Shown in pieces: positions 8,814-57,145 of a stretch of DNA of 64,000 nucleotides. Within the stretch, counting starts at the first letter, position 1. Each line of letters opens with the position of its first letter. The DNA comes from Euglena gracilis. Taxonomy: Eukaryota. The position numbers were made by a program, and so were the translations under genes. The DNA is taken from assembly GCA_039621445.1 (NCBI GenBank), contig CP154954.1, forward strand, positions 16,510,140 through 16,574,139. Direction: 5' to 3'. Under the pieces are notes generated by a model, which saw nothing but the letters and a program-made list of their open reading frames with translations, was not told where the DNA came from and did not search any database.

Positions 8814-9824
8814 TCATGCAAAAGGGCGGGGTATGGGAAGGTCAGTAGCGGGTTTGTCCACCGCGAGCCGCAATGACAGCCGGCATGCAGTTAGGCATGC
8901 TGTCATAAAATGCTTTGACCTGTTCGGGGGAGATTTCTGCGAAGGCAGCTTGCAAAGCCAACCACACTGGTCTTTGCCCGCAAACGCATGCCCACGCAAC
9001 TTGTGCAGCACCATGGGCCACAAATGTTCAATGGGGTTAAGGTCTGGCGACTGTGGTGGCCAAACCCCTCCGTTGAAGCGCAGCACTCGCTTACACCTCA
9101 TCCACGCTGTGGTACTCCGCGCACGGTGGGGAGAAGCCCCGTCCTGCTGGAAGCGGTAGCCCGCAGTCCTGCACAATGGATTGTGAATATGTCGAATATT
9201 GGCGTACAAACACCAGGCGTTTCCGCTTGTTCACCGAGGACAGTAATGGCTTCCTTGCTGCGGTTTGGCAGCACAAGCCCGCCTTCCGTAGGATTGTACG
9301 GATGAATTCTGGAGATGGTTTTGGCGGTATCTGAAATTCACACAAAAAAAGCATGTGCATAACGATTGACAAACACGCCTTAACCACTGCCCCTGCTGGG
9401 CGGGCTAACAATGCGGTGCTAACTCGGAGGAAATGCTCGTCGGCGATTTGTTTGCAACTCCAAAAAGGGTTTTTCATTGCCATTTTTAATATACCCCTTC
9501 GAAACCTGTGGGAATTTCGGAAGGGAATATAATTTATAGCAAACGTTGCACACCGTGCTGAATATTTCTTTGCCTTTTGCTGATTGGATCCCGATCCAAC
9601 TTTGCGATCAAGCGTGCAACGTTCTTTGAATCTGGATGCCATACCCGGGATAAGTGGCTGGTGTGAATTGTGTACAAGCTGGGTATATACCTTGCACTGT
9701 AGCTTTGGAGATTTTCTCGTGATTTTGCAATCTTATTGAGCGACCAGGGTGGAACAAAAGAGAGATACGTCTCCACGCGCTTGCGCAAAGCCGCTCTGTC
9801 GGCAGTGCTCAGTTTTGGGGGCAT
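8814..9824 (-). pseudogene. Tc1/mariner transposase, intron-containing, internally deleted
   Basis: Minus-strand FQQDGASPH...WPPQSPDLNPIEHLW (Tc1 DD34E core) and N-terminal HTH-type segments (IRTILRKAGL...RKPLLSSVNKRKRLVF). The segment carrying the first catalytic Asp is missing and the frame shifts near 9190. Two 48-nt introns at 9506-9553 and 9331-9378. Confidence 0.85.
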
Positions 9825-9839
9825 GAGAGCAACTGGGGA

Positions 9840-9852
9840 NNNNNNNNNNNNN
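9840..9852. other. Assembly gap (13 N)
   Basis: Run of n in the sequence. Confidence 0.99.
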
Positions 9853-36114: not shown

Positions 36115-38850
36115 GCATATGGCATAGTCAGTTCGTTGTTGGAGGTTCTAATGTGATCACAAAAGGAAGCGTTTTCCCGCTTCATTAGCCTTCTATTTCA
36201 ATTCTTGCCCTTCTCAGGGTACGTGGGTCAAAGCCATGATCCCGGTCACGGAGTGGGTGCTGCAGAGTGGGACCGAGGCTGTGGAGGTGGTGAAGAGGAT
36301 GGAGGCCCGAGGTGGGGACCGTGTGTCCCCACACACGTTCAAGTGCCTGGAGGCCATCTACCACCCGGACGACTACGCGGAGCTGGCCCAGGTGATGTTG
36401 GACGAGAAGTCCCAGCCACCAACCCAACGGCTTGTCCAGGCTCAAAAACAAAACAAAAAAAAAAATAAAAAAAAAAAAAAAAAAAAAAATGTTTCCGCTT
36501 CGTACATAAACTTTTAATTTTTAATGTATAATTGTGTTCACAGTATTCACCCATTCATCCAAAATACAAAATGGAGTCTGCTTCCAAGCACGAGACGGCG
36601 AAGCTGGTGCGCCGGAGGACCTGGACGTGGCTGCTGCAGCACCCGGAGCTGGATGCCGATGTTCTTCACCCGACCAGAAGTGTGTGCTTTTGTATAATTG
36701 TCTGCATGAATCATATTCGTGCAAGTCTGAGAGCTGCTGCCTTTGATAACTGGTTCTTTACAATGATAAACTTCAGTCTGTATCATGAAGTGTTTTTCCA
36801 CTTCACTTTAATTTGTGTTCTTTTTGCAGAGGACCTGGTGCAGGTGGCCGCGCTGGAGACCGCCTTGCAGCCGGAGCACGTCAAGGTGCCGATGACCGGA
36901 GTGAAGTGGAGGTGGTCGCCCGAAGCCCCCTGTGCGGGAACCAACTTCTGATTTGGAAAAACAATTCTCGTTTCATAGCCTGGAGTGAATGCACCCCTCC
37001 CAGTGAATGCATTCACACCCCCTCTGATGCGATGGTAATTGTCCCCCGGCATCGGCCGCCCATCGAGGTGGTACGTCGCGCACCGCTGTGGGCCGACCCC
37101 TTGTACGAGGGACTCAGGCAGCGGCTGCTGGGCCCCGTGATGGAGCCCGTCGTCAAGATCGGGGGTGTCTTCGGCACCTTGGACCTGCACGGGATGAGCC
37201 TGCCTGGCCGTGGTCCGTCAACGCCCGGCAAACCAAAGAAACTGGAGGAGGAGGTGTCCAGCACCCAGGAGATCTCCACGCCAGGCCGGGCCATGGCCAA
37301 GCGGGCTGCCCAGCCTGAGGCGCCGAAGACCGGCCTCATGCACGTGGTGCCCATGCAGTCCACGGACAACGCCTGGCCGAAGGACCTCCGTCTGCTGGAC
37401 CTGGCAGCCGTGGTGGTGGAGGTTGAGCCCCAGCAGTTCGCCGACGAGGACAGCGTGCATACCGAGGTGTTGAGGCTCATGCTGACGGGGGTGCCCATGA
37501 TCGCCGTCGGGAGGGATATCGACCTGCGAGATCTCCAAGCGCGGCTGACGAAGTTGCTGGGCAGTGAGATGACCGTCTTCCGCAAGGACATCGTCCTCTT
37601 CATCCCGCAGCCGGGGCCCGACCCGGAGTGGATCTGGGCGCGAAGGACCCTGTCCGTGTTCACCACGAACAAGAAGACCATGAAGGTGCACCATCAATTT
37701 TATTTTATGATGAAGCGAAAAAGCGCTTCCTGATAATGAGAGCACTTCTTTTCTTTTCATGTATATGTCATAGTGAGTGCATACATGTACATCGTACAAA
37801 ACAGAAATTCCCTGTTACTTCCCGTCGTAGGACCCCGGACAGATCACCTTGCAGGGGATGCACCAGGTCCCAGATTGCACTTAGCATGCTAGCAAGCTAA
37901 GAATGTTGTCTTCAGTTTTCATACTTCAATCGTGAAACTTATGTCCCGGTTGCTGAGAGCAGTGTCCACCAACCCCGTTAGATTTTGGCGATGTCTGTTT
38001 TGAAGTGCTATCCGGTGCACCCGACGTTGCCCATCTTGTTCCTGTGGAGGTGGTCTGGTGGTACCCAATGAAAATGCCTTGTCCGGAGTCAGAAGGGAAT
38101 GGGAATGCAGATACAAAACCATAAAACATTTTAGCAAAGTACTTTGAAGCGGATTTACGCTTCAATTGTTAGATCTAGAAAAAAGACACAGATTCAACCA
38201 GGTGATTTCCATTTGCATTCGTTAAACGTCACACCATGTGAAATTGAAGTTCGGTGAAAGTATGGGACAGAAGCCTGGGCCACCCTGCACCCAGATCACC
38301 GGCGGTAGCCCGTCGGCCACCCTCACTTCGCGGCCGATGTCCTCCAGGCAGCGCTGCTGGGCCTCTGCGTCGTCGGAGGGGAGGGCCGGCACGCCCCACA
38401 GCAGGTTGATGGCGCTGCCCGCCCGCACGGCCAGCTGGGCGGACAGCACCGGTCGGGAACTCAGCACCATCACCCACTCGGCGGTGGCCACCCAGCCGCC
38501 GCAGGAACCCCTGTGGCCAAGGACGTCCACCTGAGGATCGTCCGCCACGTAGCCCTGAACGTGTCCGGGTACATCCCGGAGGGGACGGAGACGGCCCCCG
38601 CACCACCGACGGAGGAGGAGCCCCCGTCCAAGGGCGGCCGGGACCCGAAGGACTTCAAGTTCAAGGAGACCAAGGAGTCCCAGGACAAGCCCAAGGAGAA
38701 GGAGACCAAGGACAAGCCGGACAAGAAGACCAAGGACACGCCCAAGAAGGGCGTCCGCGGGAAGCAGTCCGCCTCCTCGCAGCAGCCGGCTCGGCACTCC
38801 TACGAGTCGTCCCCGGAACCGCCGGAGCGCCCGACACACAGGGAGCGGCC
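34984..38850 (+). pseudogene. Element B multi-exon ParB/Srx-like domain protein, disrupted
   Basis: Spliced GQVRRPRQEHVNDLITELKNNPPQELVLTVWPERATGKWVILSGQHRFLAA, followed by MTLADRLHWLLKEDTHNREIAEVEG (HTH-like). Colinear with the A protein. Disrupted by a poly(A) tract at 36444-36489 and an inversion at 38063-38507. Confidence 0.72.
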
Positions 38851-38966
38851 TAATGGAGGATTGTCTGTGATATCTCTTTCCTTATGTCATCTCTCCAGTT
38901 GGCAGTAATTTAACAGTTCTGTTCATGAAGCGTTTTTCCGCTTCCTTATAACTGAATCAGAGTATT

Positions 38967-40692
38967 TGAGGCAGACCAGACCTCCACAACAGCTCCACCG
39001 GTGCCAGCCATCCGCGAGGTCTACCAGGAACGGGTGGTCCTGGTGGATCGACCGGTGATCGTGGAGAGGCAGGTACCTGTTCCGGTCCGGGAGCCGGTCT
39101 TCGTGGATCGCATCGTGGAGCGCCTCGTGCAGGTTCCAGTGCAGGTGCCCGTGGAGGTTCGGGTGCCGGTGCCAGTCGAGGTGCGGGTCCCAATTCCCAT
39201 CTACCTCCCCAGCCACCAACAGGGACAACCCCCGGCCCTGGTGCAAAACGTGCAAGTCAATGCACTCATCAACGGCCCGGCACCCACAGGCCTTATCGAG
39301 GCCCCAGCCATCCCAGCCATCGAGGCTGCCAATCGTCTCATGCTGCCTGCCCCCCCACCACAAGCATTCCTCGCCGAAGAAGAAGAACAAGAAGAGGATG
39401 ACTCGTCCTCACAAGCCCCCTCCAAGAAGCGCAAGTACACCATTTTGAGCGAGTGGCCGAAAGAGTGGAGGGAGAAGTACGAGGAATGGAAGTCAGCAAT
39501 GAGGTGCAGGCACCCAGGCCGAGGGAAGGCAATATTCTTTTCTTGGGACCACGAGCTGCAAAGCCAAGTCTGGGCCTGCTGTGGGCCACAACGGAGGGAG
39601 GCCATCCAGCAATGGCTAGACGAAGCAGCAGCCAGCCACATGGCCAGCAGCACTGCCCAGGAACACCTGTTGCACGACTGGCACGAAGGCGCCAGGATCG
39701 GGGAGGCCGACCACCCTGGTCCTCGACACCACCACCCGGAAGGCAAACCCCCAGGGCAGCCATCTAACAACCACTCCGGGCCCCACGCTCCCGGAGCGAG
39801 ACAGCACAATGTCCAGGCGGGCGGCAGGCAGCGTGGTGCCTGTGCCCCGCCAACCCGTTCCGCAGGGGAGTTCGCAAAGCGGGATTTGCCCCGGCCCCAA
39901 GCCCCTTGGTGACCCAATAGGGAAGCGACCCGTGGGCACCGCCCTGGGGAGACAGAAAACCCCGCCGCCATGAGATTTTTCAGACCCTCCCGCCCTGAGA
40001 GTGTGCAGGGCACCCAAGGCTTAAGAGAGGAAGAGGGTGCCGAGTGGACCCCTGTGTACGGCAGGCGAGGGGCAGCCGTGCATAAGCAGCTGAAGCGAAT
40101 GGCAGAGACCATCGCTGCACTGACCCGAGAAGTCCAACAAATGAAGGAAAATTTTGAAGAACGCCACTGTCGGGGGGTGTCGGTGCCCCCAGCCAACCAA
40201 AGGAGCACCAGGGGAGAGAATGGGGCAAACCGGGCAGGCCCCCCTCCGATCCCCGCACACCCCAACCAATGGGATGTGCTCCAAAGGCAGCAGCAGCAGC
40301 AACCCAGCCCCAGCGGGAGGGGGGAGGGTTCAACAACCACGGGAGGAGCCTCCTACCCCCCAAGGGACCGGCAAAGCCGCAAACCCGACAAAACGACCCA
40401 AACCAACTCCCGCAGGCAGCAGCAGGAGCAGCAGCAGCAACAGCGACAGCAGCAGCAGCAGCAGCGCCAGCAGCAGCGGCAGCTTTCCTTCCAGGAGGAC
40501 ACCGGGGGCCGTGGTGGTGGGCCAGTGATGACGCAGCGTAGTGAGCCGGCACCCCCGGTTTCGCTGTGTCGGAGGCCAGGCGGGGGACGCCCTGCCGTCA
40601 CCACCCAGAGCACCTCCTGGAATGAAAACAAAGCAGCCCCCTCCACCTCCGACACACCTGCACCACACACTTCCCATCCACACCAATCTGGA

Positions 40693-40733
<41 letters not shown>
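38967..40733 (+). mobile_element. 5'-truncated retro-cassette ORF ending in (GA)n
   Basis: Near-identical reverse complement of 53435-55221. Intronless ORF with VPV repeats, GARIGEADHPGP and polyQ. Confidence 0.7.
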
Positions 40734-40734
<1 letters not shown>

Positions 40735-40738
<4 letters not shown>

Positions 40739-41530
40739 CTGCTGGCGCCCGACGCTGGACCGAAGGGCGAGACGGCGCTGAAGGATGTCCTACAGTACGT
40801 GCTGCGGACGCTCCTGAAGCACCAGGTACCCTCCGCCGACGCTGCGACGGAGCTGGACCAGCTGTGCTACGACGCGCAGGCTGGCAGCAGTCGCCGGTCG
40901 CAGGCGGAGTTGGATCTCTGCCAGGTCCACTGGGACAGCGTGCTGGGTCGCCGCCGTCCACGCCAGGAGAGGGCTCCTGGGGAGGCAGCAGCCAGACTCG
41001 CGGTTGCTCAGTCAATTTGGGGGGCTATTCAGTATCACCGTTGTCCTGCTAACATTCATATCTCAGGAACACGGAAGTGTTACTTAGCATTTGCGCATTT
41101 GCGCGCATCAAAAGTAAAAAAAAACATGTGCACGTGTGTGGTGATGCTGTCAATACGGTTGTACCTTATGAAACAATTTATACTTTTTATTTGCGCAATT
41201 GCGCGCATCAAAAGTATAAACTGTTCCATATTCATCCTAAGTGACATGTGCAGTAGGCCTTGTACGTGTACTGCGTCTGACAAAGAGTTCCTTCAGTCCC
41301 CTGTGAAAATAGTGGCCCATTAGTGCAGGCGTTTGTACACCTGCACATACCCCACATTTCTTTTGGGAATTCTTTGTGTTCTAAAAGTAGATGGGAAGGT
41401 ACTGAATGTTTGTGGCTTCGTAAGTTTGAGACTACGAACGTTTTTGAGGATGGGGGGGTCACACCCTCCCTCCCTGAACACGCAGAATGCATTTTGTGGG
41501 CGCAATTGCGCGCATCAAAAATAAATTTTC
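40735..41530 (+). pseudogene. Fragment of an A-family transposase gene
   Basis: ETALKDVLQYVLRTLLKHQVPSADAATEL resembles B TTEQLLPVLRHSLQTLVRGQRLAADVEEWL. Three A-type palindromes at ~41089, 41190 and 41499. Confidence 0.55.
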
Positions 41531-41628: not shown

Positions 41629-44600
41629 AACACAGACTGACAACACACGCACCCACACCAACTTACAACACATTTTCCCCACAAGGACGCACACTCGGGT
41701 CGGCAAGGAGTTCCCCCCAAGGAGTTCCCCCAGCAACACCGCTTCAGAAGAGAGAGAGAGAGCGCGCGCAACTGCAACCGCCCATGCAACCATGCAACCG
41801 CCCACGGCGAGGATACAATATGGGCTCCCGCCAGCTCAGGTGGTTTAAACATATGAACGAGGTCCCCCACGCAGCAACCGAGGTGATGCTCTCGGCCTGC
41901 GAGGACTCGAGCGAAAGGTCCTCCCGCGCAGCCCCAAGTGCAATTCGGCACCGGGGAGAGAGTCACGTGGGTGAAGCCCCTTATACCCTCCTGGTGAGAC
42001 GCGGGCTAGGGCTCCCCACGGCGACTCTATGCGGGTCGCTCCAGGAAGTCTGGCCCATCTCTGGGTGAAAGAGGCGGGCTGAGGGGTAGCCAGGACCCCG
42101 TCGGTGCTGGCCGGGGACCAGAGTATCCCAGAGGGGTGACCACCTTTATGCCAAGGAGATGGGGTTGCACCACAAGCCCCCAATCCGAGGCAACGGAAGT
42201 TCGGACGCGGGCCGTACCTCGGGTGTGGGGGCACACCCGAGGGCCATGTAACTGCGGAGTTGCTCTCCAGGTGGGTGCCCAAGGGGCCGTGACTCGACTA
42301 GCCCACCTGCAGAGCATGCGCGCCCAGAACCAAGGTGGTCTGCCACCACCATCCGGGCATCGGCACAGCGCTTCGCACCGGGCAGAATTTCGGCCACCTG
42401 GACTGTGCCACTGTACAGGAGGGGGGTGTCCCCCCAACCACCCCCTCTTGCTGGACTGGAGGGGGGGTCCGACCCTCCCCATTTGCCTTTATATCAAACC
42501 CTCGACACCCACCCAGCATCAGCCGCCGTCGTCGTCTTTTCAGTTTTCGCGCAAAAGGCACCAAAGGAATTTTCCTTTCAAAGTGGTTGGGATGGACTTA
42601 CCTCCGCCCCCCTCCTGCAACCAACCTGGGCAAGGGCCCAAACCAACTGTTTTCAGCCCCGCAGCCCAGCCTGCCGTGGGTAGGGGTGGGTTCCGGGAAG
42701 GTCATACTTTGGGGTGGCTGATGCCGACTGGCGGTATTCCAAACCACGCCCCCTCCCCCTTATCACAGCTTGCTGCGGCGATCTGTCGGCTGACCGTAAG
42801 TTGCTGTGTGGGTTTTGGCTGAGAAGGTACCCCAGAGCACTGATGACAGCACAATTTATGGACCAACACTCGCATGGCAGCACCAACGCCTGAAATTGGA
42901 CAGATGTGGTTGGGGGCCGGCGGGCCACCAAACTGCAGATTACTGCAGGTTGAGAGTGTTTTCTCGATTTCTTATGCCGGTGTTCCAGTTTCCCCAGTCC
43001 ACCGTGGATTTTTTGGTGGTTCTTTGTACACCTGTTTGATACCAATGGGGTTCAAGGTTGCCGGGCTGGCCGGGGGGATTTGCCACGCCAGCCAGGTTGC
43101 CCCAATTTTTCGGAGGTGGATTTCAGCAATTCCCCTCTTATCCAAATTCCTCTTTCTGGCTGGTACCCTAATTCCCAATCACCCCTACCCTGTGGGTGGG
43201 TTACAATTTGGCTACAATTTGGTGTTCCCTTTCTGGGTTACAACCTTTTTTTTGACCTCCCCCCTCCCAGCATCAGGTGTGCATGTGAACTTTGACAGCA
43301 GATTACATTTTTGTTGGGGATACTTTTTGACCCAATCCCGGGGGGGGTCAGAAGGGCCCCTCAATCACGCCCCCTGTAACCTTGCATGCATTTTCCCTCC
43401 AACAGAGCACTGCCAGAAGGCCGCAACAAGGAAGCACCCCCTTGCTAGAAATCGACAGTAGAGTCGATTTTTTTTGGTAGTTGGGCAGACGGGTGGGTAG
43501 CCAGACGCACTCTCTGAGGCACTGGACTAGTGGCGACCTTGAAGGAAGCCACCCCTGCTTTTTTTGACGCGATGCACCTTTATTTTTTGGCAGCACAAAA
43601 TGGCTCCCCCAAAAGGGTCCTCTGCCACAGGTGCCCCACCCGCTGGGGGGGGGTAGTCGGTGAGGTAACAGAATGCAGAAATACACATATATAAATCTGG
43701 TCAATAAAATAATCATCACAATAATCAACAGGCATAATGTTGCGACTTTGGCTGTCATCATTGGAATGTACGGACCACGTGGGCAGCCAATCCCGCAACG
43801 CTGTGTTGTTGGTCTGACACGACACACTCCAAAACAACCACTGTTGGGTGTTTTGCCCCTGCGTCAATACCCTGGTTTGGACCACACCAGCAGGCAGGTT
43901 CAGTTTTGCCTGTCACTGAACCCCTGTATTGCACCAGCGAAAGGGGGCTTCATGTGTACACTGTGCATTCTGATGACGGTGAGCGTCCTGGTGGCCTCTG
44001 TTTTGCTCTGCCTGCCGGCCTGTGGTATCGCTCGCCAGGAGAAATCATGACACATATTTTATGCGACTGCAACAAGGTTGTTTTTTTGTGAACAAGTTTT
44101 TTTTTTGTGAACAGTGGGGTCCTTTGCAGGATTCGAGCTGGCAGGAGGGGCACTTCAGGGTTTGGGGTGGGTATTGCTATTGTACCCCCCCCCCGGCGCT
44201 GAAGGCACCGCTGCCCCGAAAACGCCATTTCAAGGTCAAATATTGGCTCTGTCGACTGAACTCGGAACCCAAAACAGAACTGCGTGCCTGCTACGGGCAG
44301 GCACCTCGTTGCACAAGGCCCCCTACCCCCCGTGGTTGTTCATAGAAAGTCTGATCCTTTGGGGACAGCTGTTGCCAGCAGACCCACACAAGGCAAATTT
44401 AGGAAGAATTTCCTCCTCGATCCTGTTTACCCAATTTCACTGAAAAAAACTGACTGCAACGCCACCCCAAACCCCATACCCCAGGGGGGTGGGGTGGGGG
44501 CTCTGTTGAAAACGGTCTCAGATCATGACATTCAATGCCTTTTCTTCTAAGTGTCTCAAGAAATTTGATGATTTGCTCAATAATTGGTAAGCAGCACCAA

Positions 44601-44880
44601 AATCATATACAAGGGGTCATTTTGCTAACTGCTATCCCCTAATGGCACCGTTCCGTTGACAGACGGTACCGTCCCCAAACCCCCTTGTCCACGGCTTGTT
44701 CCTAGTTGTGCGTGTGCTGTGTCAAGCGAGGGGGGGTTTCACTTTTGCAATTTTTTGAAAAGAAACAATAAAAGACAATAAATGTGAATTCAAACGAAAG
44801 AATAAAATAACAAAATAAAGAATTGCAAAAAAGTCAGGCAACCGAGTTTTAGTACAACAAAGATCCAATTCTGTAAGAAA

Positions 44881-46607
<1,727 letters not shown>

Positions 46608-49600
46608 AACATTTCTATGATATTTTAATGAAAAGAAGCCCTCTGTATTCTTGTGAATTCCAGATATCAATATTTTGGCTTTTTTTCCTTAAAAATATCT
46701 CCTAGTTGGAAAGGACAAAAAAATGAACATTATATGTAATGGATAAAATGTGCAAATTATTGAAGAATCGCCGAAATATCCAAGAATAGTTTTTTTGCTT
46801 AACATGAAACCCAATATACATTTTGTCCATCAAGTTTGTTTTTCTTTTGGTCAAAATTGTAATTTTTTAAGCTGTCAGAGAATATTTTTTCTTGCCAATA
46901 ATTGAATATGGAGGATGTTTTTCAAAAAAAATTCCTTTTTTTTTCAGCATGTATTTTTTACATTTAAAGGCCTAAATATGCTTATAAAATCAGAGAAGAG
47001 AATTGATAATGAAAATAGTTAATTTGCACAAAACGGTAAAATTGCAAAATTGTGCTTTTTGCCACACAAACCACTTTTGGAATCAAATGTTAAGTTAAGT
47101 TGTCTAAAATTATGTACCTCAATCGCAGTTTATTAAGTTTTTCTCCCAGATGCGAAAAAAAATGAAATATTTTCCTCGAAAATCAAATGCGTCTCTAATA
47201 ATCCAGGAAGCTTTTATTTTCAACGTTTTTAAACAGCAAAAGGGAGAAAAAGAAGCCAGAATAAAATATAATTTCTTCTATACATTTATTTGCAAGTTTT
47301 GAAAAGTTATCGGTCATTTGTTTATGGGGCAAGGTAATGTGGGCGATGTTGGAAATTTTGTCTATAAATACCTTTTATGTTTCCCAATGTGTTTCCCTTT
47401 TTTTATTTTCTCCAAATTATATTGCCCCAACGTATTTTTTTTTGTGTGCGAAAATTTTGATTTGTCTGCATTTTGGTTTTTTATATTGTTTCTGAATTTT
47501 TCTTGATCCATCCGGGATGAAAATTAATGGAATGAGTGTTATAAGAACATGGATTAAAAAAGAGGTTCAAATTTGATTTTTTTTGTGACGGGGAATTTGG
47601 AGGTTTTCCACCCTCTGAAGATAATATGACAGTTTCTCGAAAGAAAGCTGTGACAATTTTTTTGCGAAGATAATTCAGAGTTCAAATTTTCATTGGTCGG
47701 TCCCACCCTTCTCCGGGCTTCTCATATATCCCTGATCCGTGCTTGCAACTCTGGAATGCTTGGACCAGGCTCGTCTATTGGTTGCCGCACATTTTCACTA
47801 TGTGGGTCGCCAGGTGTCTGAAAGAAGTGGATTAGATTAATACTGACTTTTGTGAGGTGTCGGTGAATTCTCAAGAGCGTAACTAACTAAGAGTGTCCCC
47901 CCCCCCCCAGGCGCTTGGCCCGGGCCACGACTGAAGGCAAGGCCGGGGGGCCAACCTCAGGAGCCAAGTTTGCATGTTAAGGATTTCAGTGAGCCATGTG
48001 CAAAAGAGGACCAAAGCATTAATGGGGGGCCAAATTGCAAGTTAAGGCTGAAGACCAACTTTAGGGGGCCAAGTTTGCACGCAAGAAGGAGCGGACCCAA
48101 GCGCCCAGGGAGGGGGGAGTAAGTTTTCATGTTTAAAATTTCAGGAACATTCCACTGTACAATGCAATAAACAATTTCTGTTTTGGTAGTTTATTTTTCA
48201 ATACATGTTTGTGGTTGGGACTCTAAACCCCGTCCATTATGGTTTCGCATTGTTGGAAGCAAATCTAGCCCGTTGTGAAAGCTTACGACTCCTTCCATCG
48301 TTGCTGGGCAGTCATGGTTCCACCATTCAGTGACCTCCTTCTTTGACTGTGGTCTTTGTTGTTGGTGAACAGTCAGTGATGGCGTGCCATTTGTTCCTGC
48401 TTGCTGCTTGCTGCTTGCCGAGCAGCCAGTTAAATTGTCCTGCAGGCACAGCCCCAACTGCCTGCCCTGTTTTGTGGCTGACCCTTTTTGGAAAGGCTTG
48501 CCGTTCGACATTTGGAGGGTTGGCAAATGCGATTTAGGCGAGTTTGTCGATGTTGCATTTAAGTTTTTTGGTACCTAGAATGAAATTCAAATGCGCTTTT
48601 TTGAAAAAAACCAGGAGGCTTCGAGAATTGCATTTTTTTTCGACAACATTAAAATGCTCCGGTCCACAGTGCTAAAAAAATATTTGAAGAAAGTGCCGCG
48701 GGTCTAAGTCGACCTCATCCCAGTTCCATCACCGCAGCCTTGACCGCCGAGTTTCTGCTTCCTTGGTGCAAGGTCCCAAGTGTCTTGTCGCTGTTCCTCA
48801 TTATTCTCCGGGCATTTGATCTCTTTCTGGTCACTTGGTTTGCAGCTGTTCACAAATAAATATTTCCCCCCATTTTTTTCTTGGCATCATTTTTTGGCCT
48901 CTTGGGCTTTTTGTGCTCTTCAAGGGATTCCCACCACGTTTTCACTGGGTATTACATTGCAACCGACCAGGTTCTGTTGTCAGAGCTATCAAGGTGGTTA
49001 TCCTTGGAGAACTGCCCCCCTTATAACAGAGAGACAAACACTTTCTTGAACATGTTTGGGGGTTTGGCTTTCCAGTGTGTCAATCTTGGGGTTCAGATAG
49101 GGTTAGGGTCGCTGAGCTCTTGTCCCTTTATGAGTAACATCGAAGCTTTCCAGGGGAACCCCCCCCCCGACACCCCGCCTTTTGGGCTACATAATTAGAA
49201 CCCCCGTTTCCCGGTATGAACTGCCTCCCTCCCCAGGGAGTTGTCTTTTAGGGAAGCCTCCCACATGGTCCCAGGAGCCCTTAAAGTAATCCCAATGATC
49301 TAGAAATAACTCCCCAGGGTAATCAAGTTGTCAAAAGGACTCCATGGGAGAACTCAAGCCATGAGCAACGCCCTATCTAGTGGTACCTGACTTTCCCAGT
49401 AACCCCACCGCTGGCCAAAGTTACGCCCCCCGTTTTTTGACATGTTTTTTTTGGCCTTTTTGGCCCGTTTTTGGCCAAAATGGGCAAAAAAACACAATGT
49501 TCAAAATATTCTGAAAATAAAGCAAAGTGAAAGAAAATGTTTAAAGTATCAAATGAAACCCTGAGAACTCCCTATCTTCCCGTTACGCCCCACCTGGTTC

Positions 49601-49769: not shown

Positions 49770-52311
49770 TATAGGAAGCGGTAAAGAGGACATTCCGCTT
49801 CAAAATCATACACAGGTCACCAAAATCAACAGCAGAAGAATCATACCAAAGGGATTACTACAGCAAAGTGAAGAAAATTTTCCTAAAACGAAAAGGAAGC
49901 GGAAAACCGCTTTAATGAGAAACTGAAAAATTATGTGATAAGTCAGATGGAAGTAGATTCACCTCAAACAGTGAATAATAATACCGACATACATTCGTTC
50001 AGCATAACCGGAGGGGTGTGATGAACCACACGAACTCAGCAGTAATCATTGGCATAAGTTTAACTAATACATTCATCAGAAAACATTACAGCCACAACAA
50101 ACGGAATACAAATGTAACAAACAGAACAATACAGACCTGTAATCAAAGTCTGCGCTTGAGGTACCGGGCCATCATAAGCGGGCAGGAGGGAAAACCTGCA
50201 AAAACAAGCAGGAAACGATGAAGCGGGTTTCCGCTTCCTCAAATCAAAGCAGAGAAATTTAGTCTGATCCAAACTGTAGTGCACTGGTCTGAAACTGCCA
50301 TTGTCAATATCACTGAACCAACTGAATGCAGATTGTAATGACAAATGGCAAACTTGAACTACGCAACAAACGTGAATCACGCATCAAACAGTACCGAGAA
50401 GATGCATTGTGTCCCGAAGCACCATTAACTGAGCAAGTTGTGTATTTGTAACTTTGATTCTCAGAACAAAAGTCACAGCTTCAACAAACCCCACAGCCCC
50501 CAGTTCCGCAGCCATGCCAAAGACAAACACAAAGGAAAGACACGGCAAAATGGGTGGGTGTGGTGTGGCGAAGGCGTGCGCATGGTTGGGGACTGGGTCT
50601 GGGTGCGGGTATGGGTCTGGTCCGGTCTGGGTCCGGTACAGGTCTGGGTCTCGCTTGTCCCTCCCTCGCTGACGGCACCAGCCGCCCGCTGCCACCGCGG
50701 CTGCCGCAGCCGCCCGCTCACTCGTCGTCCACCAGCATCTCCTGGATGTTCTCCAGGGCGGACCGCTTCCTCGGCAACAGGGAGCGGCGCAAACGGGAGG
50801 TGTGGAACTCAGATAACGGTTTTGATTTGGTGCATCGCATTACAGTAAAACGTGAAACACAATACCAATCTTACAAAAAATACTCTGATTCAGTTATAAG
50901 GAAGCGGAAAAACGCTTCATGAACAGAACTGTTAAATTACTGCCAACTGGAGAGATGACATAAGGAAAGAGATATCACAGACAATCCTCCATTAGGCCGC
51001 TCCCTGTGTGTCGGGCGCTCCGGCGGTTCCGGGGATGACTCGTAGGAGTGCCGAGCCGGCTGCTGCGAGGAGGCGGACTGCTTCCCGCGGACGCCCTTCT
51101 TGGGCGTGTCCTTGGTCTTCTTGTCCGGCTTGTCCTTGGTCTCCTTCTCCTTGGGCTTGTCCTGGGACTCCTTGGTCTCCTTGAACTTGAAGTCCTTCGG
51201 GTCCCGGCCGCCCTTGGACGGGGGCTCCTCCTCCGTCGGTGGTGCGTGGGCCGTCTCCGTCCCCTCCGGGATGTACCCGGACACGTTCAGGGCTACGTGG
51301 CGGACGATCCTCAGGTGGACGTCCTTGGCCACAGGGGAACCCAATGAAAATGCCTTGTCCGGTGTCAGAAGGGAATGGGAATGCAGATACAAAACCATAA
51401 AACATTTTAGCAAAGTACTTTGAAGCGGATTTACGCTTCAATTGTTAGATCTAGAAAAAAGACACAGATTCAACCAGGTGATTTCCATTTGCATTCGTTA
51501 AACGTCACACCATGTGAAATTGAAGTTCGGTGAAAGTATGGGACAGAAGCCTGGGCCACCCTGCACCCAGATCACCGGCGGTAGCCCGTCGGCCACCCTC
51601 ACTTCGCGGCCGATGTCCTCCAGGCAGCGCTGCTGGGCCTCTGCGTCGTCGGAGGGGAGGGCCGGCACGCCCCACAGCAGGTTGATGGCGCTGCCCGCCC
51701 GCACGGCCAACTGGGCGGACAGCACCGGTCGGGAACTCAGCACCATCACCCACTCGGCGGTGGCCACCCAGCCGCCGCAGGAACCACCAGACCACCTCCA
51801 CAGGAACAAGATGGGCAACGTCGGGTGCACCGGATAGCACTTCAAAACAGACATCGCCAAAATCTAACGGGGTTGGTGGACACTGCTCTCAGCAACCGGG
51901 ACATAAGTTTCACGATTGAAGTATGAAAACTGAAGACAACATTCTTAGCTTGCTAGCATGCTAAGTGCAATCTGGGACCTGGTGCATCCCCTGGAAGGTG
52001 ATCTGTCCGGGGTCCTACGACGGGAAGTAACAGGGAATTTCTGTTTTGTACGATGTACATGTATGCACTCACTATGACATATACATGAAAAGAAAAGAAG
52101 TGCTCTCATTATCAGGAAGCGCTTTTCCGCTTCATCATAAAATAAAATTGATGGTGCACCTTCATGGTCTTCTTGTTCGTGGTGAACACGGACAGGGTCC
52201 TTCGCGCCCAGATCCACTCCGGGTCGGGCCCCGGCTGCGGGATGAAGAGGACGATGTCCTTGCGGAAGACGGTCATCTCACTGCCCAGCAACTTCGTCAG
52301 CCGCGCTTGGA
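49770..52311 (-). mobile_element. Element B copy 2 (3' part, inverted), including the last exons of the ParB-like gene
   Basis: 50878-52311 is a near-identical reverse complement of 37534-38966 apart from the internal inversion. It continues to a terminal exon ending ...ENIQEMLVDDE* near 50720 and carries further B palindromes. Left boundary uncertain. Confidence 0.8.
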
Positions 52312-52402
52312 TAAACACAAACACACACATAAACACAAAAAATATATCTCTCTCACACACACTCTCTCTCTCTGAAACAGTTGCTGGGTGAACTCCTTGG
52401 GG

Positions 52403-52449
<47 letters not shown>

Positions 52450-52465
52450 TCCACTTGGGACTTCG

Positions 52466-52538
52466 GTGGTTTCGGCCCGGGCTGCCTGGGGGTGGGCCTC
52501 ATCAGTGGAGTCCCCCAGCGCCCTTCTCTCCAGACCAC
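52466..52538 (-). ncRNA. Type III hammerhead ribozyme, family 1
   Basis: GUGGUC^UGGAG-loop-CUCCA CUGAUGA GGCCC-loop-GGGCC GAAACCAC: full core and three stems. Confidence 0.9.
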
Positions 52539-52737
52539 AGCTGTCTTGAATGCCGCGTCGGTGAGCTTGACCTTGCTTCTGCCGCGGGGCACGAGCCGTG
52601 GGGGCCGACCTGCTCTGAAAAAAGCAGGGGAGACAGACCCGTTCTGAGTAAAACGGGCGAGCTCCGGCTCCTCCTCACCCGTTGTGGGGTGACCACGGTT
52701 TCCCGTGTAGCTCTCTCTTCTTCCACTTGGGACTTCG

Positions 52738-52810
52738 GTGGTTTCGGCCCGGGCTGCCTGGGGGTGGGCCTCATCAGTGGAGTCCCCCAGCGCCCTTCTC
52801 TCCAGACCAC
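52738..52810 (-). ncRNA. Type III hammerhead ribozyme, family 1
   Basis: Same motif in repeat unit 2. Confidence 0.9.
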
Positions 52811-53009
52811 AGCTGTCTTGAATGCCGCGTCGGTGAGCTTGACCTTGCTTCTGCCGCGGGGCACGAGCCGTGGGGGCCGACCTGCTCTGAAAAAAGCAGG
52901 GGAGACAGACCCGTTCTGAGTAAAACGGGCGAGCTCCGGCTCCTCCTCACCCGTTGTGGGGTGACCACGGTTTCCCGTGTAGCTCTCTCTTCTTCCACTT
53001 GGGACTTCG

Positions 53010-53082
53010 GTGGTTTCGGCCCGGGCTGCCTGGGGGTGGGCCTCATCAGTGGAGTCCCCCAGCGCCCTTCTCTCCAGACCAC
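53010..53082 (-). ncRNA. Type III hammerhead ribozyme, family 1
   Basis: Same motif in repeat unit 3. Confidence 0.9.
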
Positions 53083-53281
53083 AGCTGTCTTGAATGCCGC
53101 GTCGGTGAGCTTGACCTTGCTTCTGCCGCGGGGCACGAGCCGTGGGGGCCGACCTGCTCTGAAAAAAGCAGGGGAGACAGACCCGTTCTGAGTAAAACGG
53201 GCGAGCTCCGGCTCCTCCTCACCCGTTGTGGGGTGACCACGGTTTCCCGTGTAGCTCTCTCTTCTTCCACTTGGGACTTCG

Positions 53282-53354
53282 GTGGTTTCGGCCCGGGCTG
53301 CCTGGGGGTGGGCCTCATCAGTGGAGTCCCCCAGCGCCCTTCTCTCCAGACCAC
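53282..53354 (-). ncRNA. Type III hammerhead ribozyme, family 1
   Basis: Same motif in repeat unit 4. Confidence 0.9.
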
Positions 53355-53430
53355 AGCTGTCTTGAATGCCGCGTCGGTGAGCTTGACCTTGCTTCTGCCG
53401 CGGGGCACGAGCCGTGGGGGCCGACCTGCC

Positions 53431-53434
<4 letters not shown>

Positions 53435-53494
<60 letters not shown>

Positions 53495-56021
53495 GATTGG
53501 TGTGGATGGGAAGTGTGTGGTGCAGGTGTGTCGGAGGTGGAGGGGGCTGCTTTGTTTTCATTCCAGGAGGTGCTCTGGGTGGTGACGGCAGGGCGTCCCC
53601 CGCCTGGCCTCCGACACAGCGAAACCGGGGGTGCCGGCTCACTACGCTGCGTCATCACTGGCCCACCACCACGGCCCCCGGTGTCCTCCTGGAAGGAAAG
53701 CTGCCGCTGCTGCTGGCGCTGCTGCTGCTGCTGCTGTCGCTGTTGCTGCTGCTGCTCCTGCTGCTGCCTGCGGGAGTTGGTTTGGGTCGTTTTGTCGGGT
53801 TTGCGGCTTTGCCGGTCCCTTGGGGGGTAGGAGGCTCCTCCCGTGGTTGTTGAACCCTCCCCCCTCCCGCTGGGGCTGGGTTGCTGCTGCTGCTGCCTTC
53901 GGCTGCGGCGGCTTTGGAGCACATCCCATTGGTTGGGGTGTGCGGGGATCGGAGGGGGGCCTGCCCGGTTTGCCCCATTCTCTCCCCTGGTGCTCCTTTG
54001 GTTGGCTGGGGGCACCGACACCCCCCGACAGTGGCGTTCTTCAAAATTTTCCTTCATTTGTTGGACTTCTCGGGTCAGTGCAGCGATGGTCTCTGCCATT
54101 CGCTTCAGCTGCTTATGCACGGCTGCCCCTCGCCTGCCGTACACAGGGGTCCACTCGGCACCCTCTTCCTCTCTTAAGCCTTGGGTGCCCTGCACACTCT
54201 CAGGGCGGGAGGGTCTGAAAAATCTCATGGCGGCGGGGGTTTTCTGTCTCCCCAGGGCGGTGCCCACGGGTCGCTTCCCTATTGGGTCACCAAGGGGCTT
54301 GGGGCCGGGGCAAATCCCGCTTTGCGAACTCCCCTGCGGAACGGGTTGGCGGGGCACAGGCACCACGCTGCCTGCCGCCCGCCTGGACATTGTGCTGTCT
54401 CGCTCCGGGAGCGTGGGGCCCGGAGTGGTTGTTAGATGGCTGCCCTGGGGGTTTGCCTTCCGGGTGGTGGTGTCGAGGACCAGGGTGGTCGGCCTCCCCG
54501 ATCCTGGCGCCTTCGTGCCAGTCGTGCAACAGGTGTTCCTGGGCAGTGCTGCTGGCCATGTGGCTGGCTGCTGCTTCGTCTAGCCATTGCTGGATGGCCT
54601 CCCTCCGTTGTGGCCCACAGCAGGCCCAGACTTGGCTTTGCAGCTCGTGGTCCCAAGAAAAGAATATTGCCTTCCCTCGGCCTGGGTGCCTGCACCTCAT
54701 TGCTGACTTCCATTCCTCGTACTTCTCCCTCCACTCTTTCGGCCACTCGCTCAAAATGGTGTACTTGCGCTTCTTGGAGGGGGCTTGTGAGGACGAGTCA
54801 TCCTCTTCTTGTTCTTCTTCTTCGGCGAGGAATGCTTGTGGTGGGGGGGCAGGCAGCATGAGACGATTGGCAGCCTCGATGGCTGGGATGGCTGGGGCCT
54901 CGATGAGGCCTGTGGGTGCCGGGCCGTTGATGAGTGCATTGACTTGGACGTTTTGCACCGGGGCCGGGTTGGTGGCTGGGGAGGTAGATGGGAATTGGGA
55001 CCCGCACCTCGACTGGCACCGGCACCCGAACCTCCACGGGCACCTGCACTGGAACCTGCACGAGGCGCTCCACGATGCGATCCACGAAGACCGGCTCCCG
55101 GACCGGAACAGGTACCTGCCTCTCCACGATCACCGGTCGATCCACCAGGACCACCCGTTCCTGGTAGACCTCGCGGATGGCTGGCACCGGTGGAGCTGTT
55201 GTGGAGGTCTGGTCTGCCTCAGCATGGTGCTGGGAGGATGCACCATCGTGGATGGCCGGGGAGTCTTCCACTGGCGGTGGTGGGGGTGGGAGAGGCTCCA
55301 GGACAGGGGTGGGGATTGAAAGATCTAGAAAAGCCGGCTATCGACAGGCCAGCCTGGGCGGGGAAGCCGGGAGAGACACTGAGGCGTCCCCCAGTGTGGA
55401 GTCAGGCTGGCCTCGGTCCCTTCCCACCTCCCACAAGAGGGCTCGGTCACCGTCACCCCCCTGGACGTCTCCAGCATGCAGGTTGGCGGATGTACCAGGC
55501 GGTATCGGGACCGCGGCTGACATCGCCGGTTGGGGAGAGGAGGATTGTATTGGAGGCGGGGGGACATACCAGGAGGGGCTGCAGCAGAAACAGCAGCATG
55601 GCCGACAGACTCAACGCCCAAAGGGTGATCCCCCGGGGTTGAAGGAGGCCGGTGGTCGTTGGGCAAATGTGCGGCGCCCCTGGGTGGATGTGCTCGCGCA
55701 GAACCCTCTCCTTTGCCTTGCCCTGGAGCCTCTGGTGGTGGGTGGATGTGTGCGTGCTTGGGCACCCGCTGCTTTCCGTGTCGCACGTGGGCCGCGTGGT
55801 CGACCTCCATCACGTCAGAGTCTGACCCCGCTCTCGGTGAAGCTGGGGGAGTCATTTCCGCCAGGAGGTCGTCAATGCCTTCTGTGGGCGCGGGTGCGGC
55901 GGGATGTCCAAACACAGCGAGGAAATCCTCCGTTGAGGGAGCATGTGCTTGGTCCAGCGGTATGGCGGTGGCCCACGGGGCAGGCGGCGCGCGGTTTGGG
56001 CCGGTGAGAAGCCACCTCCAG

Positions 56022-56022
<1 letters not shown>
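53435..56022 (-). pseudogene. Intronless low-complexity retro-cassette ORF (frameshifted) between two (GA)n tracts
   Basis: Overlapping minus-strand ORFs 55325-55915, 54798-55271, 54287-54958 and 52774-54390 appear to chain by frameshifts. No RT or endonuclease motif seen. Confidence 0.55.
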
Positions 56023-56089
<67 letters not shown>

Positions 56090-56208
56090 GAATCGGTGTT
56101 GCTGGGGGAACTCCTTGGGGGGAACTCCTTGCCGACCCGAGAGTGTGTGCTTGTGGGGGAAGTGTGTTGTGTCAGTCGGTGTGGGCGCGTGTGTTGTCAG
56201 TCTGTGTT

Positions 56209-56281
56209 GCGGTTTCGCCCCAGGCTGGCAGGTGGGGCATCGTCAGGGGTGACGACCCTGCCAACCCTCGTCCCCGACCGC
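56209..56281 (-). ncRNA. Type III hammerhead ribozyme, family 2
   Basis: GCGGUC^GGGGACGA-loop-UCGUCACCC CUGACGA U GCCCCA-loop-UGGGGC GAAACCGC. Confidence 0.85.
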
Positions 56282-56664
56282 TCTTGTCTGTGTGGCGCAG
56301 ACCGTTACAAACGAGCTCTGCGTTACCATCCAGGTGGTGGGGGAGGGGGGCGGGATGAAAAAAAACCGGCCCCAAGAACAAGGCAGCGCGGGACGGAAAA
56401 ATGGTCCACTACCTACGGGGCACCCTCCGGGACAGCACCCTTTTGGGAGGGCGAGACAAGGCCCTTTCGGTGTGGAAAGAGGCAAAAATTGCCGAAAAAT
56501 ACGGACGGCACCCGAAGGCTTGGGGCGTGAGTACCCAAATTAAGCCGCCGGTCCTGGGGTCGCAGCACCAACCCCTGGGGGAGGGGGTGGCCTGAGCCGC
56601 CGGTTGCTCAGCAGAACTGCCGCGGGTTTAGCCCACAAAATGGGGCGCTGGGGGCGAGGCATGG

Positions 56665-56734
<70 letters not shown>

Positions 56735-56735
56735 G

Positions 56736-57145
56736 TAAACCCCCCCCCCAAATAATAACCCCCCCAAATTACCCCCCAAATCCCCCTCGGGCCGAGACTT
56801 CGGTGACCCCCGCCCCCCCCCCCCCTAATTTCGGGCCGACGTCCCGATTTTGAAAATGTAGGTAAATAAATAACCATCTTTGACAATAAATTACACAAAA
56901 AAATTATTCATTACAAAAATATTTTTCTGGATCATCTGGCGTCCAAAAATGCTAAATTTCATGAGAAAATAAAATAAATGACCAAAAAAGGGGGGGTTGG
57001 GTGCTATTTTGGGTCCTATGTGACTTCGAAAAACTTCGAAAATTCTGGGGAGCTATTACTCCCCCCAAATAATACCCACCCCTCGTGCGGGACTTCGGGC
57101 GAAAAAATAATAACCCGGGGGGGGAGATATTATTTGGGGGGGTTA
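56736..57145. mobile_element. MITE related to 24284-24697
   Basis: CCCCCCCCAAATAATA ... TATTATTTGGGGGGG inverted ends. Confidence 0.55.

Follow-up and report, generated by a model that had tools for sequence, protein, structure and literature searches.

The 64,000-nucleotide stretch of contig CP154954.1 analysed here, which we call the window, carries at 52439–53434 a tandem array of a 272-bp unit, and the minus strand of each unit contains a type III hammerhead ribozyme motif. Tandem Repeats Finder, from which the figures for period, copy number, matches and indels are taken, reports one array with a period of 272, 3.7 copies, 99% matches, 0% indels and a score of 1985. In the RNA sense the array is flanked on both sides by (GA)n microsatellites, and a block with a reading frame lies directly upstream. 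The coordinates of these features are collected in Table 1. An earlier note on this DNA, made from the letters alone, had described the array as retrozyme-like; below we set out what the repeat contains, how it may have arisen and how it compares with the elements it resembles.

Table 1. Positions in the window of the array, its ribozyme motifs and its flanking features.
Feature	Position	Strand	Basis
Tandem array of 272-bp unit, 3.66 head-to-tail copies	52439..53434	-	Tandem Repeats Finder and cutting at predicted cleavage sites
Hammerhead copy 1, type III, stems 5/5/4, predicted cut after C at 53349	53282..53354	-	Descriptor match
Hammerhead copy 2, predicted cut after C at 53077	53010..53082	-	Descriptor match
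Hammerhead copy 3, predicted cut after C at 52805	52738..52810	-	Descriptor match
Hammerhead copy 4, in last partial unit, predicted cut after C at 52533	52466..52538	-	Descriptor match
CUGGGGG, loop I of copy 3, one strand of proposed pseudoknot, every 272 bp	52784..52790	-	Sequence, duplex energy, shuffles
CCCCCAG, loop II of copy 3, partner strand of proposed pseudoknot	52758..52764	-	Sequence, duplex energy, shuffles
(CT)28 on plus strand, (GA)28 in RNA sense, directly upstream of array	53435..53490		Tandem Repeats Finder
(TC)20 on plus strand, (GA)20 in RNA sense, directly downstream of array	52406..52446		Tandem Repeats Finder
Block with reading frame, same strand as ribozymes, directly upstream of array	53448..55221	-	Sequence, self-comparison, homologues

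The repeat unit and its hammerhead motif

Cutting the array at the predicted cleavage sites on the minus strand yields an 86-nt partial unit, three full units of 272 nt and a 94-nt partial unit. There are no differences among the three full units; the 86-nt partial has one mismatch and the 94-nt partial none. If unit position 1 is taken as the first base after the predicted cleavage site, the array in the RNA sense (minus strand) begins at unit position 187, makes three full turns and stops at unit position 94. The earlier description of about 3.6 apparently identical copies of a 272-bp repeat, each with one hammerhead, is borne out by the 3.66 copies counted here and by the complete motif found in all four minus-strand copies. 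Identity of this kind means that the array is young, has been homogenised or was collapsed by the assembler. The unit has a G+C content of 63.6% and is non-coding, because stop codons occur in every frame of both polarities; no endless reading frame runs round a 272-nt circle.

Read 5′ to 3′, each minus-strand copy of the motif opens with GUGGUC. UGGAG and CUCCA, separated by a loop of 17 nt, come next, followed by CUGAUGA; GGCCC and GGGCC then enclose a loop of 15 nt, and GAAA and CCAC complete the motif. The strands follow in the order stem III 5′ arm, GUC, hairpin I, CUGAUGA, hairpin II, GAAA, stem III 3′ arm, with helices I and II capped by loops and helix III open, which is the type III topology. 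CUGAUGA, GAAA and GUC are present in all four copies and every core position fits the hammerhead consensus. The pairs that adjoin the core in an intact hammerhead (1.1–2.1, 10.1–11.1 and 15.2–16.2) are U-A, G-C and C-G, and the cleavage triplet, GUC, is the optimal one. The claim that each unit has a complete core and stems I to III was therefore correct: the core is canonical in every copy, stems I and II have 5 bp each, and stem III comprises the A15.1–U16.1 pair plus 4 bp. To judge by this motif, the RNA would be expected to cleave itself after GUC.

A descriptor scan for the core plus three stems, run over both strands of the window, gave exactly four matches, all of them within the array, and relaxing the stems to 3/2/2 bp produced no further hammerhead elsewhere on either strand. 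Block-shuffled windows gave any match at all in 1 of 300 cases with stems of 4/4/4 and in 4 of 300 with stems of 3/3/3. The plus strand has no hammerhead, either in the descriptor scan or in Rfam at E values up to 10.

Each unit also holds a second GUGGUC, at 52691–52710 of the minus strand and every 272 bp thereafter, which lies within a CACGG-GAAA-CCGUG hairpin. The hairpin is like a hammerhead stem III with its cut site but has no CUGAUGA partner, and in the variant found in three of the sequencing runs considered below one of its A-U pairs is changed to G-U.

The two loops of the motif are complementary, CUGGGGG in loop I being matched by CCCCCAG in loop II, and as a free duplex the seven base pairs are worth −13.3 kcal/mol. 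A contiguous Watson-Crick match of at least seven bases arose between shuffled loops of the same composition in 2.9% of 20,000 trials (P = 0.029), and the complementarity is suggestive rather than compelling. The proposal that the loops could form a pseudoknot thus survives in part: the two sequences can act as a tertiary pseudoknot, but these bases also belong to a longer possible helix, of 12 bp, which would form at the expense of stems I and II.

Sequencing runs and the origin of the array

An index search of public sequencing runs with 52600–53000 as the query listed 24 runs, 20 of which, belonging to 13 studies, hold the 272-bp unit or part of it, with at least half of the query words present in 16. 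Runs with the unit under five organism labels have word shares of 0.82–0.89, several of them being guessed to be DNA, and six runs recorded as RNA, namely metatranscriptomes of wastewater, leaf litter, soil and roots, have shares of 0.21–0.54. Three listed runs with a low share are left out of the habitat evidence, and contig depth is not taken as a level of expression.

The contigs of four runs were compared with one unit, 52639–52910. In one run of the likely source organism, which has the same organism label as the run with the highest share and whose library kind is guessed, a 302-nt contig has overlapping ends and a period of exactly 272. A wastewater RNA library contains a 305-nt contig that closes with a period of 275, a leaf-litter RNA library a 250-nt contig at a word depth of 51 together with a minor contig whose closure gives a variant of about 249 nt, and a soil RNA library a 209-nt contig. 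The differences listed for these runs are five substitutions (52706, 52839, 52843, 52853 and 52858), three insertions (after 52828, 52841 and 52865) and two replaced segments (52905–52910, and 52907–52910 plus 52639–52664), and all of them fall outside the 73-nt ribozyme at 52738–52810. For the eight point changes this sparing of the ribozyme is only suggestive, as it would arise by chance about 8% of the time if changes were evenly spread. Folded as a circle, the unit has 65% of its bases paired and a predicted energy of −112.4 kcal/mol; in comparison with 100 dinucleotide-shuffled sequences this corresponds to z = −2.5. On that fold five of the point changes lie at unpaired bases; of the others, one replaces A-U by G-U and two fall in the same pair. 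The segment of about 30 nt that is replaced by seven letters in the leaf-litter variant contains one whole predicted hairpin.

Parts of the unit also recur in other contexts. Two modules, 52676–52719 (44 nt) and 52776–52808 (33 nt), are found with 85–95% likeness within other contigs of 112–1597 nt in the run of the likely source organism and in the soil and leaf-litter RNA libraries, with flanks that are conserved between runs; the contigs with the 44-nt module include ones of 900–1600 nt. Such recurrence suggests that there are related RNAs or repeats that together form a mosaic family. Neither of two 30-letter loose ends of the related contigs is present in the 64-kb window.

Relatives were also sought in other collections. 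A pattern scan of metagenome contigs with the loops and core fixed and the stems free gave no match, a scan of viral contigs gave none, and blastn of the 272-bp unit against phage records found no match. A different metagenome pattern, in which the 3′ arm of stem I, the core and stem III were fixed and stem II was free, matched three loci; these were rejected as chance matches because they share a single GC-rich sequence and have no stem II.

On balance, we lean towards reading the array as a mobile repeat of a retrozyme-like kind, small and non-coding, from which a small circular RNA would be made. We infer self-cleavage, circularity and an origin by reverse transcription, and the cycle may run as follows. 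Transcription of the minus strand, possibly by read-through from the co-oriented frame upstream, would produce a multimer. Each nascent unit could fold as an extended type III hammerhead, as its complete motif suggests, with the two loops kissing through up to seven Watson-Crick pairs, and cutting after GUC would free monomers of 272 nt. A host RNA ligase, or the reverse of the ribozyme reaction, might then close the monomer to a circle. Folding predicts that the circle would rearrange into a compact, branched structure in which a long helix between loop I and loop II turns the ribozyme off and leaves the circle stable. Finally, a reverse transcriptase supplied in trans could copy the circle repeatedly to give the 3.66 identical units. 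The junctions of the array suggest how this step might be primed, namely by the CT strand of a nicked (GA/CT)n microsatellite annealing to the GA tract of the unit on the circular RNA.

The relevant features of the junctions are that the array starts right behind (GA)28 and that the unit's purine tract AAGAAGAGAGAG (unit positions 83–94) runs directly into (GA)20. The array thus ends in microhomology with the microsatellite, because (GA)20 overlaps the tract by eight bases. Penelope-like elements are described as inserting preferentially into microsatellites, which masks target duplications (PMC8557442). The earlier note had gone as far as to call the array a recent rolling-circle reverse transcript; the evidence goes no further than being compatible with this. 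Points in favour of a rolling-circle origin are the identical units, the end of the array in the unit's GA tract beside (GA)n, and contigs in RNA libraries that close on themselves.

A number of observations weigh against this reading and have to be set beside it. Some concern recognition of the ribozyme. Rfam at its gathering score has no match in the whole window, and the Infernal check with RF00008 (Hammerhead_3) that had been suggested for the motif fails to reach threshold: where 48.5 bits are required, each copy reaches 15.6 bits in E-value mode (E = 5.8), through a local alignment to model positions 8–47 of 54 that uses a shorter alternative stem I and omits the GUC. The failure is not decisive, because loops of 17 and 15 nt are large insertions relative to the model, and the long loops account for part of the low score. 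Apart from these four sub-threshold RF00008 rows, no ribozyme family is found on either strand at E values up to 10. Since the ribozyme is invariant in all sequences compared, it has no support from covariation.

Others concern folding. For the 84-nt hammerhead stretch the nested hammerhead is calculated at −17.6 kcal/mol and the best fold at −31.4 kcal/mol. In the latter, loop I pairs with loop II over 12 bp and stems I and II are dissolved. A 7-bp kissing interaction would, on these calculated energies, roughly close the gap. For the 272-nt circle, the probability of the three hammerhead stems in the equilibrium ensemble is close to zero. Because the stable fold of the whole RNA hides the ribozyme, the motif would have to fold, and the RNA to cut, while transcription is still under way. 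Cutting during synthesis followed by refolding is the behaviour generally attributed to hammerhead viroids.

The remaining points concern the genome and the contigs. Comparison of 50001–57000 with the whole window finds no second copy of the unit, and Pfam finds no reverse transcriptase or endonuclease domain among the 232 reading-frame translations of the window. The junctions of the array could also have been produced by DNA recombination at GA microhomology. A clean empty site is lacking too, because the sequence beyond (GA)n differs between the upstream block and its paralogue in the window. The self-closing contigs fit circles, tandem transcripts or DNA alike. A closed contig is not proof of a circle, since tandem arrays give closed de Bruijn paths just as circles do; the contigs carry no RNA ends, strand or circularity, and RNA libraries may contain DNA. 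In the run of the likely source organism, moreover, a 112-nt contig keeps stem-loop I (33 nt, two differences) and has unlike sequence at the place of CUGAUGA; since it lacks that box, at least one mosaic relative is without the ribozyme.

Several of these points would be at home in another account, in which the array is an ordinary minisatellite grown by unequal crossing-over or by slippage at (GA)n, the hammerhead is a dead relic or a chance motif, and the contigs of the RNA libraries stem from read-through of the upstream gene or from DNA carry-over. The lack of Rfam support, the far more stable competing fold and the related contig without a CUGAUGA box all agree with it, as does the position of the array within a patchwork of duplicated, rearranged gene fragments joined by microsatellites. 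The chance rate, about 0.003 per 64-kb window, is not negligible across many windows. A decayed or accidental motif accords poorly with a core and three stems that are intact in every copy around an optimal GUC, or with the finding that all listed differences from the four runs spare the ribozyme and that the changes respect the predicted fold. The complementarity of the loops also matches a functional architecture known from the source cited (PMC7936874). We consider a minisatellite of this kind unlikely.

The breadth of the sequencing evidence raises a different alternative: that the array is a ‘retroviroid’, the integrated DNA form of a viroid-like or satellite RNA of exogenous origin. Such an RNA would spread between hosts and copy itself directly into RNA, through an asymmetric rolling circle served by a single ribozyme, and the array in the genome would be a by-product. 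Between RNA libraries from four habitats and runs assigned to five organism labels the variants remain 95–99% alike, a uniformity that is unusual for a genomic repeat of a kind described as species-specific (PMC7229834), and a size of 249–275 nt, high G+C content and branched fold are viroid-like. A survey of metatranscriptomes, moreover, describes thousands of ribozyme-bearing circular RNAs that mostly carry the ribozyme in one polarity, 3,434 of 10,181 being symmetric (preprint 10.1101/2022.07.19.500677). We nevertheless find this explanation quite improbable. Runs guessed to be DNA, under several organism labels, hold 0.82–0.89 of the words, as would suit a repeat resident in the genomes of related species that are simply abundant in soil and water. 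There is no ribozyme in the plus polarity and, among the 232 translations searched with Pfam, no helper virus sequence near the array.

Genomic surroundings

The block upstream of the array has the same orientation as the ribozymes, and to judge from the sequence, read-through from its frame would give ribozyme-sense RNA. The ribozyme might then act in cis, cutting the read-through mRNA of the upstream frame so as to end or destabilise it, and circles and mobility would be irrelevant. The position of the array directly downstream of that frame on the same strand suits such a role. The block is duplicated at 38967–40735, inverted and with 98% identity, and the paralogous copy ends in (GA)16 at 40703–40734 without the array, which is a further point in favour of such a role. 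One ribozyme would be enough for this purpose and four identical units needless, and the closing contigs hold the unit alone, with no flanking gene sequence. A purely cis-acting cutter thus appears very unlikely, but cis-cutting could coexist with the retrozyme-like cycle that we prefer.

In the product of the upstream frame a VPV-rich repeat is accompanied by a conserved KKRKY...WPxEW...W segment and by ...IGEADHPGP, a degenerate version of a 2A-like motif. This protein belongs to no Pfam family. It has five homologues, also without Pfam domains, of which three contain ARIGEA(S/D)NPGP and the other two end before the motif. Frames for the VPV-repeat protein lie at 38956–39909 (+) and 54290–55337 (−). 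The frame could be a gene of a mobile element or of a virus-like polyprotein; a literature search on the 2A-like peptide returned unrelated papers only.

A second block, 50878–52311, is duplicated at 37534–38967 with an internal inversion of 450 bp (38060–38509 matches 51336–51785 in direct orientation). The loci 37534–40735 and 50878–55221 therefore share blocks of 1.4 and 1.8 kb that are inverted, about 13 kb apart, 98–99.6% identical and swapped in order. Both loci look like rearranged gene fragments, because each keeps a different gene end intact. For the same reason the shared break point is taken as the place where one locus fuses two gene fragments. The idea that the array sits at the joint of a circularly permuted 3.2-kb copy, formed through a circular DNA intermediate, was considered and rejected.

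A motif of about 45 nt (...CCAAGGAGTTC[A/C]CCCAGCAAC...TTCAGA) precedes (GA)n tracts at 52362–52405, 56087–56115 and 41708–41762. It is read on the minus strand at two of these places and on the plus strand at the third, where (GA)n has only about seven units. It resembles the tail end of a short interspersed repeat, and one of its occurrences is the downstream flank of the array. Another motif, of about 25 nt (GCGC[A/-]ATTGCGCGCATCAAAA[G/A]TA), occurs three times within 450 bp of AT-rich sequence at 41090–41530, after the first duplicated block. At 44877–46705 lies a compound microsatellite, the window's largest repeat, about 1.7 kb long, with an 8-nt period of the TATG/TACA type and 30–36% G+C.

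The window as a whole is eukaryotic, rich in microsatellites and, to judge by Pfam, poor in genes, with 51.6% G+C and an observed/expected CpG ratio of 0.68. As to the host, that ratio speaks against a vertebrate and no more. The only family-level Pfam matches among the 232 translations belong to a decayed Tc1/mariner transposase at 8817–9732 (−), with HTH_Tnp_Tc3_2 at 1.7e-10 and DDE_3 just below the cut-off; a gap of N lies nearby at 9840–9852, and the fragment has no homologue at 1e-10. Three further Pfam matches below the cut-off are not meaningful, and a protein atlas search gave no usable match. The window contains no tRNA genes, and the spliced-leader motif and telomere motifs looked for are absent from it.

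Comparison with known systems

The architecture of the ribozyme itself is already known. Type III hammerheads with a first stem I of 5 bp, long loops and a Watson-Crick pseudoknot between loops 1 and 2 are described as cleaving in vitro, and have been reported from toad and termite delta-like agents, from Drosophila pseudoobscura and from other dipteran genomes (PMC7936874; PMC3088659). Pseudoknots between helices I and II are described as common among hammerheads (PMC3088659). The motif in the array shares with these extended ribozymes the 5-bp first stem I followed by a long loop, the longer loop II, and loops that pair by Watson-Crick rules in place of the usual non-canonical contacts. As described, the extended hammerheads have about four loop pairs (GCCR with YGGC) and an extra hairpin capping helix I, whereas here up to seven pairs are possible, extendable to 12, and no extra hairpin is evident. 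They are reported as isolated genomic motifs or within coding circles, in contrast to the 272-bp tandem units of the array. The coding circles of delta-like agents measure 1.5–1.7 kb.

The carnation small viroid-like RNA, of about 275 nt, is a small hammerhead RNA circle that is also present as DNA, and in this the array resembles it. It is presented as the only known ‘retroviroid’ (preprint 10.1101/2022.07.19.500677). On the available description, each of its two polarities carries a hammerhead, and the DNA form has a link to a pararetrovirus; the array has a hammerhead in one polarity and no virus sequence was found with it.

The earlier note had also held that tandem monomers with one hammerhead each define retrozymes and the pLTRs of Penelope-like elements. 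The retrozyme-like reading remains the best one, but the rule is imprecise, since a tandem arrangement goes with animal type I hammerheads and type III hammerheads go with plant long terminal repeat (LTR) retrozymes. The pLTRs are described as carrying minimal type I motifs beside a gene for a reverse transcriptase and GIY-YIG endonuclease (PMC8557442; PMC7229834). The array resembles them in having hammerheads within repeats and in the kind of microsatellite insertion bias that hides target duplications. It differs from them in its type III motif and in that no reverse transcriptase/GIY-YIG gene is found in the window.

The literature cited recognises two classes of retrozyme, which belong to different kingdoms and have a ribozyme topology of their own (PMC7229834; PMC4918200). 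The animal non-LTR class is described as tandem repeats of 150–450 bp, each with a type I hammerhead, with less than 50% G+C and expressed as circular RNAs of about 170–400 nt (PMC7229834; PMC7761336), and according to a 2026 preprint an active non-LTR retrozyme is one in which every repeat carries a type I motif (10.64898/2026.07.22.740005). The element described here has in common with this class its head-to-tail, non-coding monomers of a few hundred bases with one ribozyme each, the lack of an LTR, of a primer binding site and of a polypurine signal, and a predicted circle that is compact and paired with itself. Animal hammerheads, as described, are of type I, often with a weak helix III, in units below 50% G+C; here the hammerhead is of type III, with an open helix III of 4+1 bp, and the unit has 63.6% G+C.

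The plant LTR class is described as having type III hammerheads and two LTRs of 300–400 bp around a centre of 300–600 bp, with a tRNA-Met primer site, a polypurine tract, 4-bp target duplications, more than 55% G+C and branched circles of 600–1000 nt (PMC4918200; PMC7229834). The type III hammerhead, the G+C content above 55% and the branched circular RNA (here a predicted fold) are shared with this class, and the uniform 272-bp unit and the (GA)n microsatellite flanks are not. A tRNA-Met primer-site motif has no match in the array with up to two mismatches.

With its tandem layout, type III ribozyme and 63.6% G+C, the element probably fits neither described class; it mixes them, since it has the layout and size of animal retrozymes and the ribozyme type and G+C content of plant ones. 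No tandem type III retrozyme appears in the titles and abstracts of the literature searched (supplementary lists of hammerhead loci, outside that search, could hold similar cases), and a literature search pairing hammerhead with protist names returned no paper containing the hammerhead term. It is conceivable, though we would put this forward only tentatively, that the array is the first genomic representative of a third retrozyme class, one that is tandem and combines an extended and pseudoknotted type III hammerhead with high G+C content, in a host eukaryote that may be neither plant nor animal. Its circles of about 250–275 nt would be widespread in soil, litter, root and wastewater RNA and might move between hosts as a viroid does. 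Screens based on Rfam would miss a ribozyme that scores 15.6 bits, so that similar elements may be under-counted in surveys of circular RNA. The element also offers a natural test of whether a long loop-loop helix can serve as an on/off switch, with cleavage in one state and a stable circle in the other. An element that mixes both retrozyme classes would blur the division between them, and would bear on the link that has been proposed between genomic retrozymes and infectious viroid-like RNAs.

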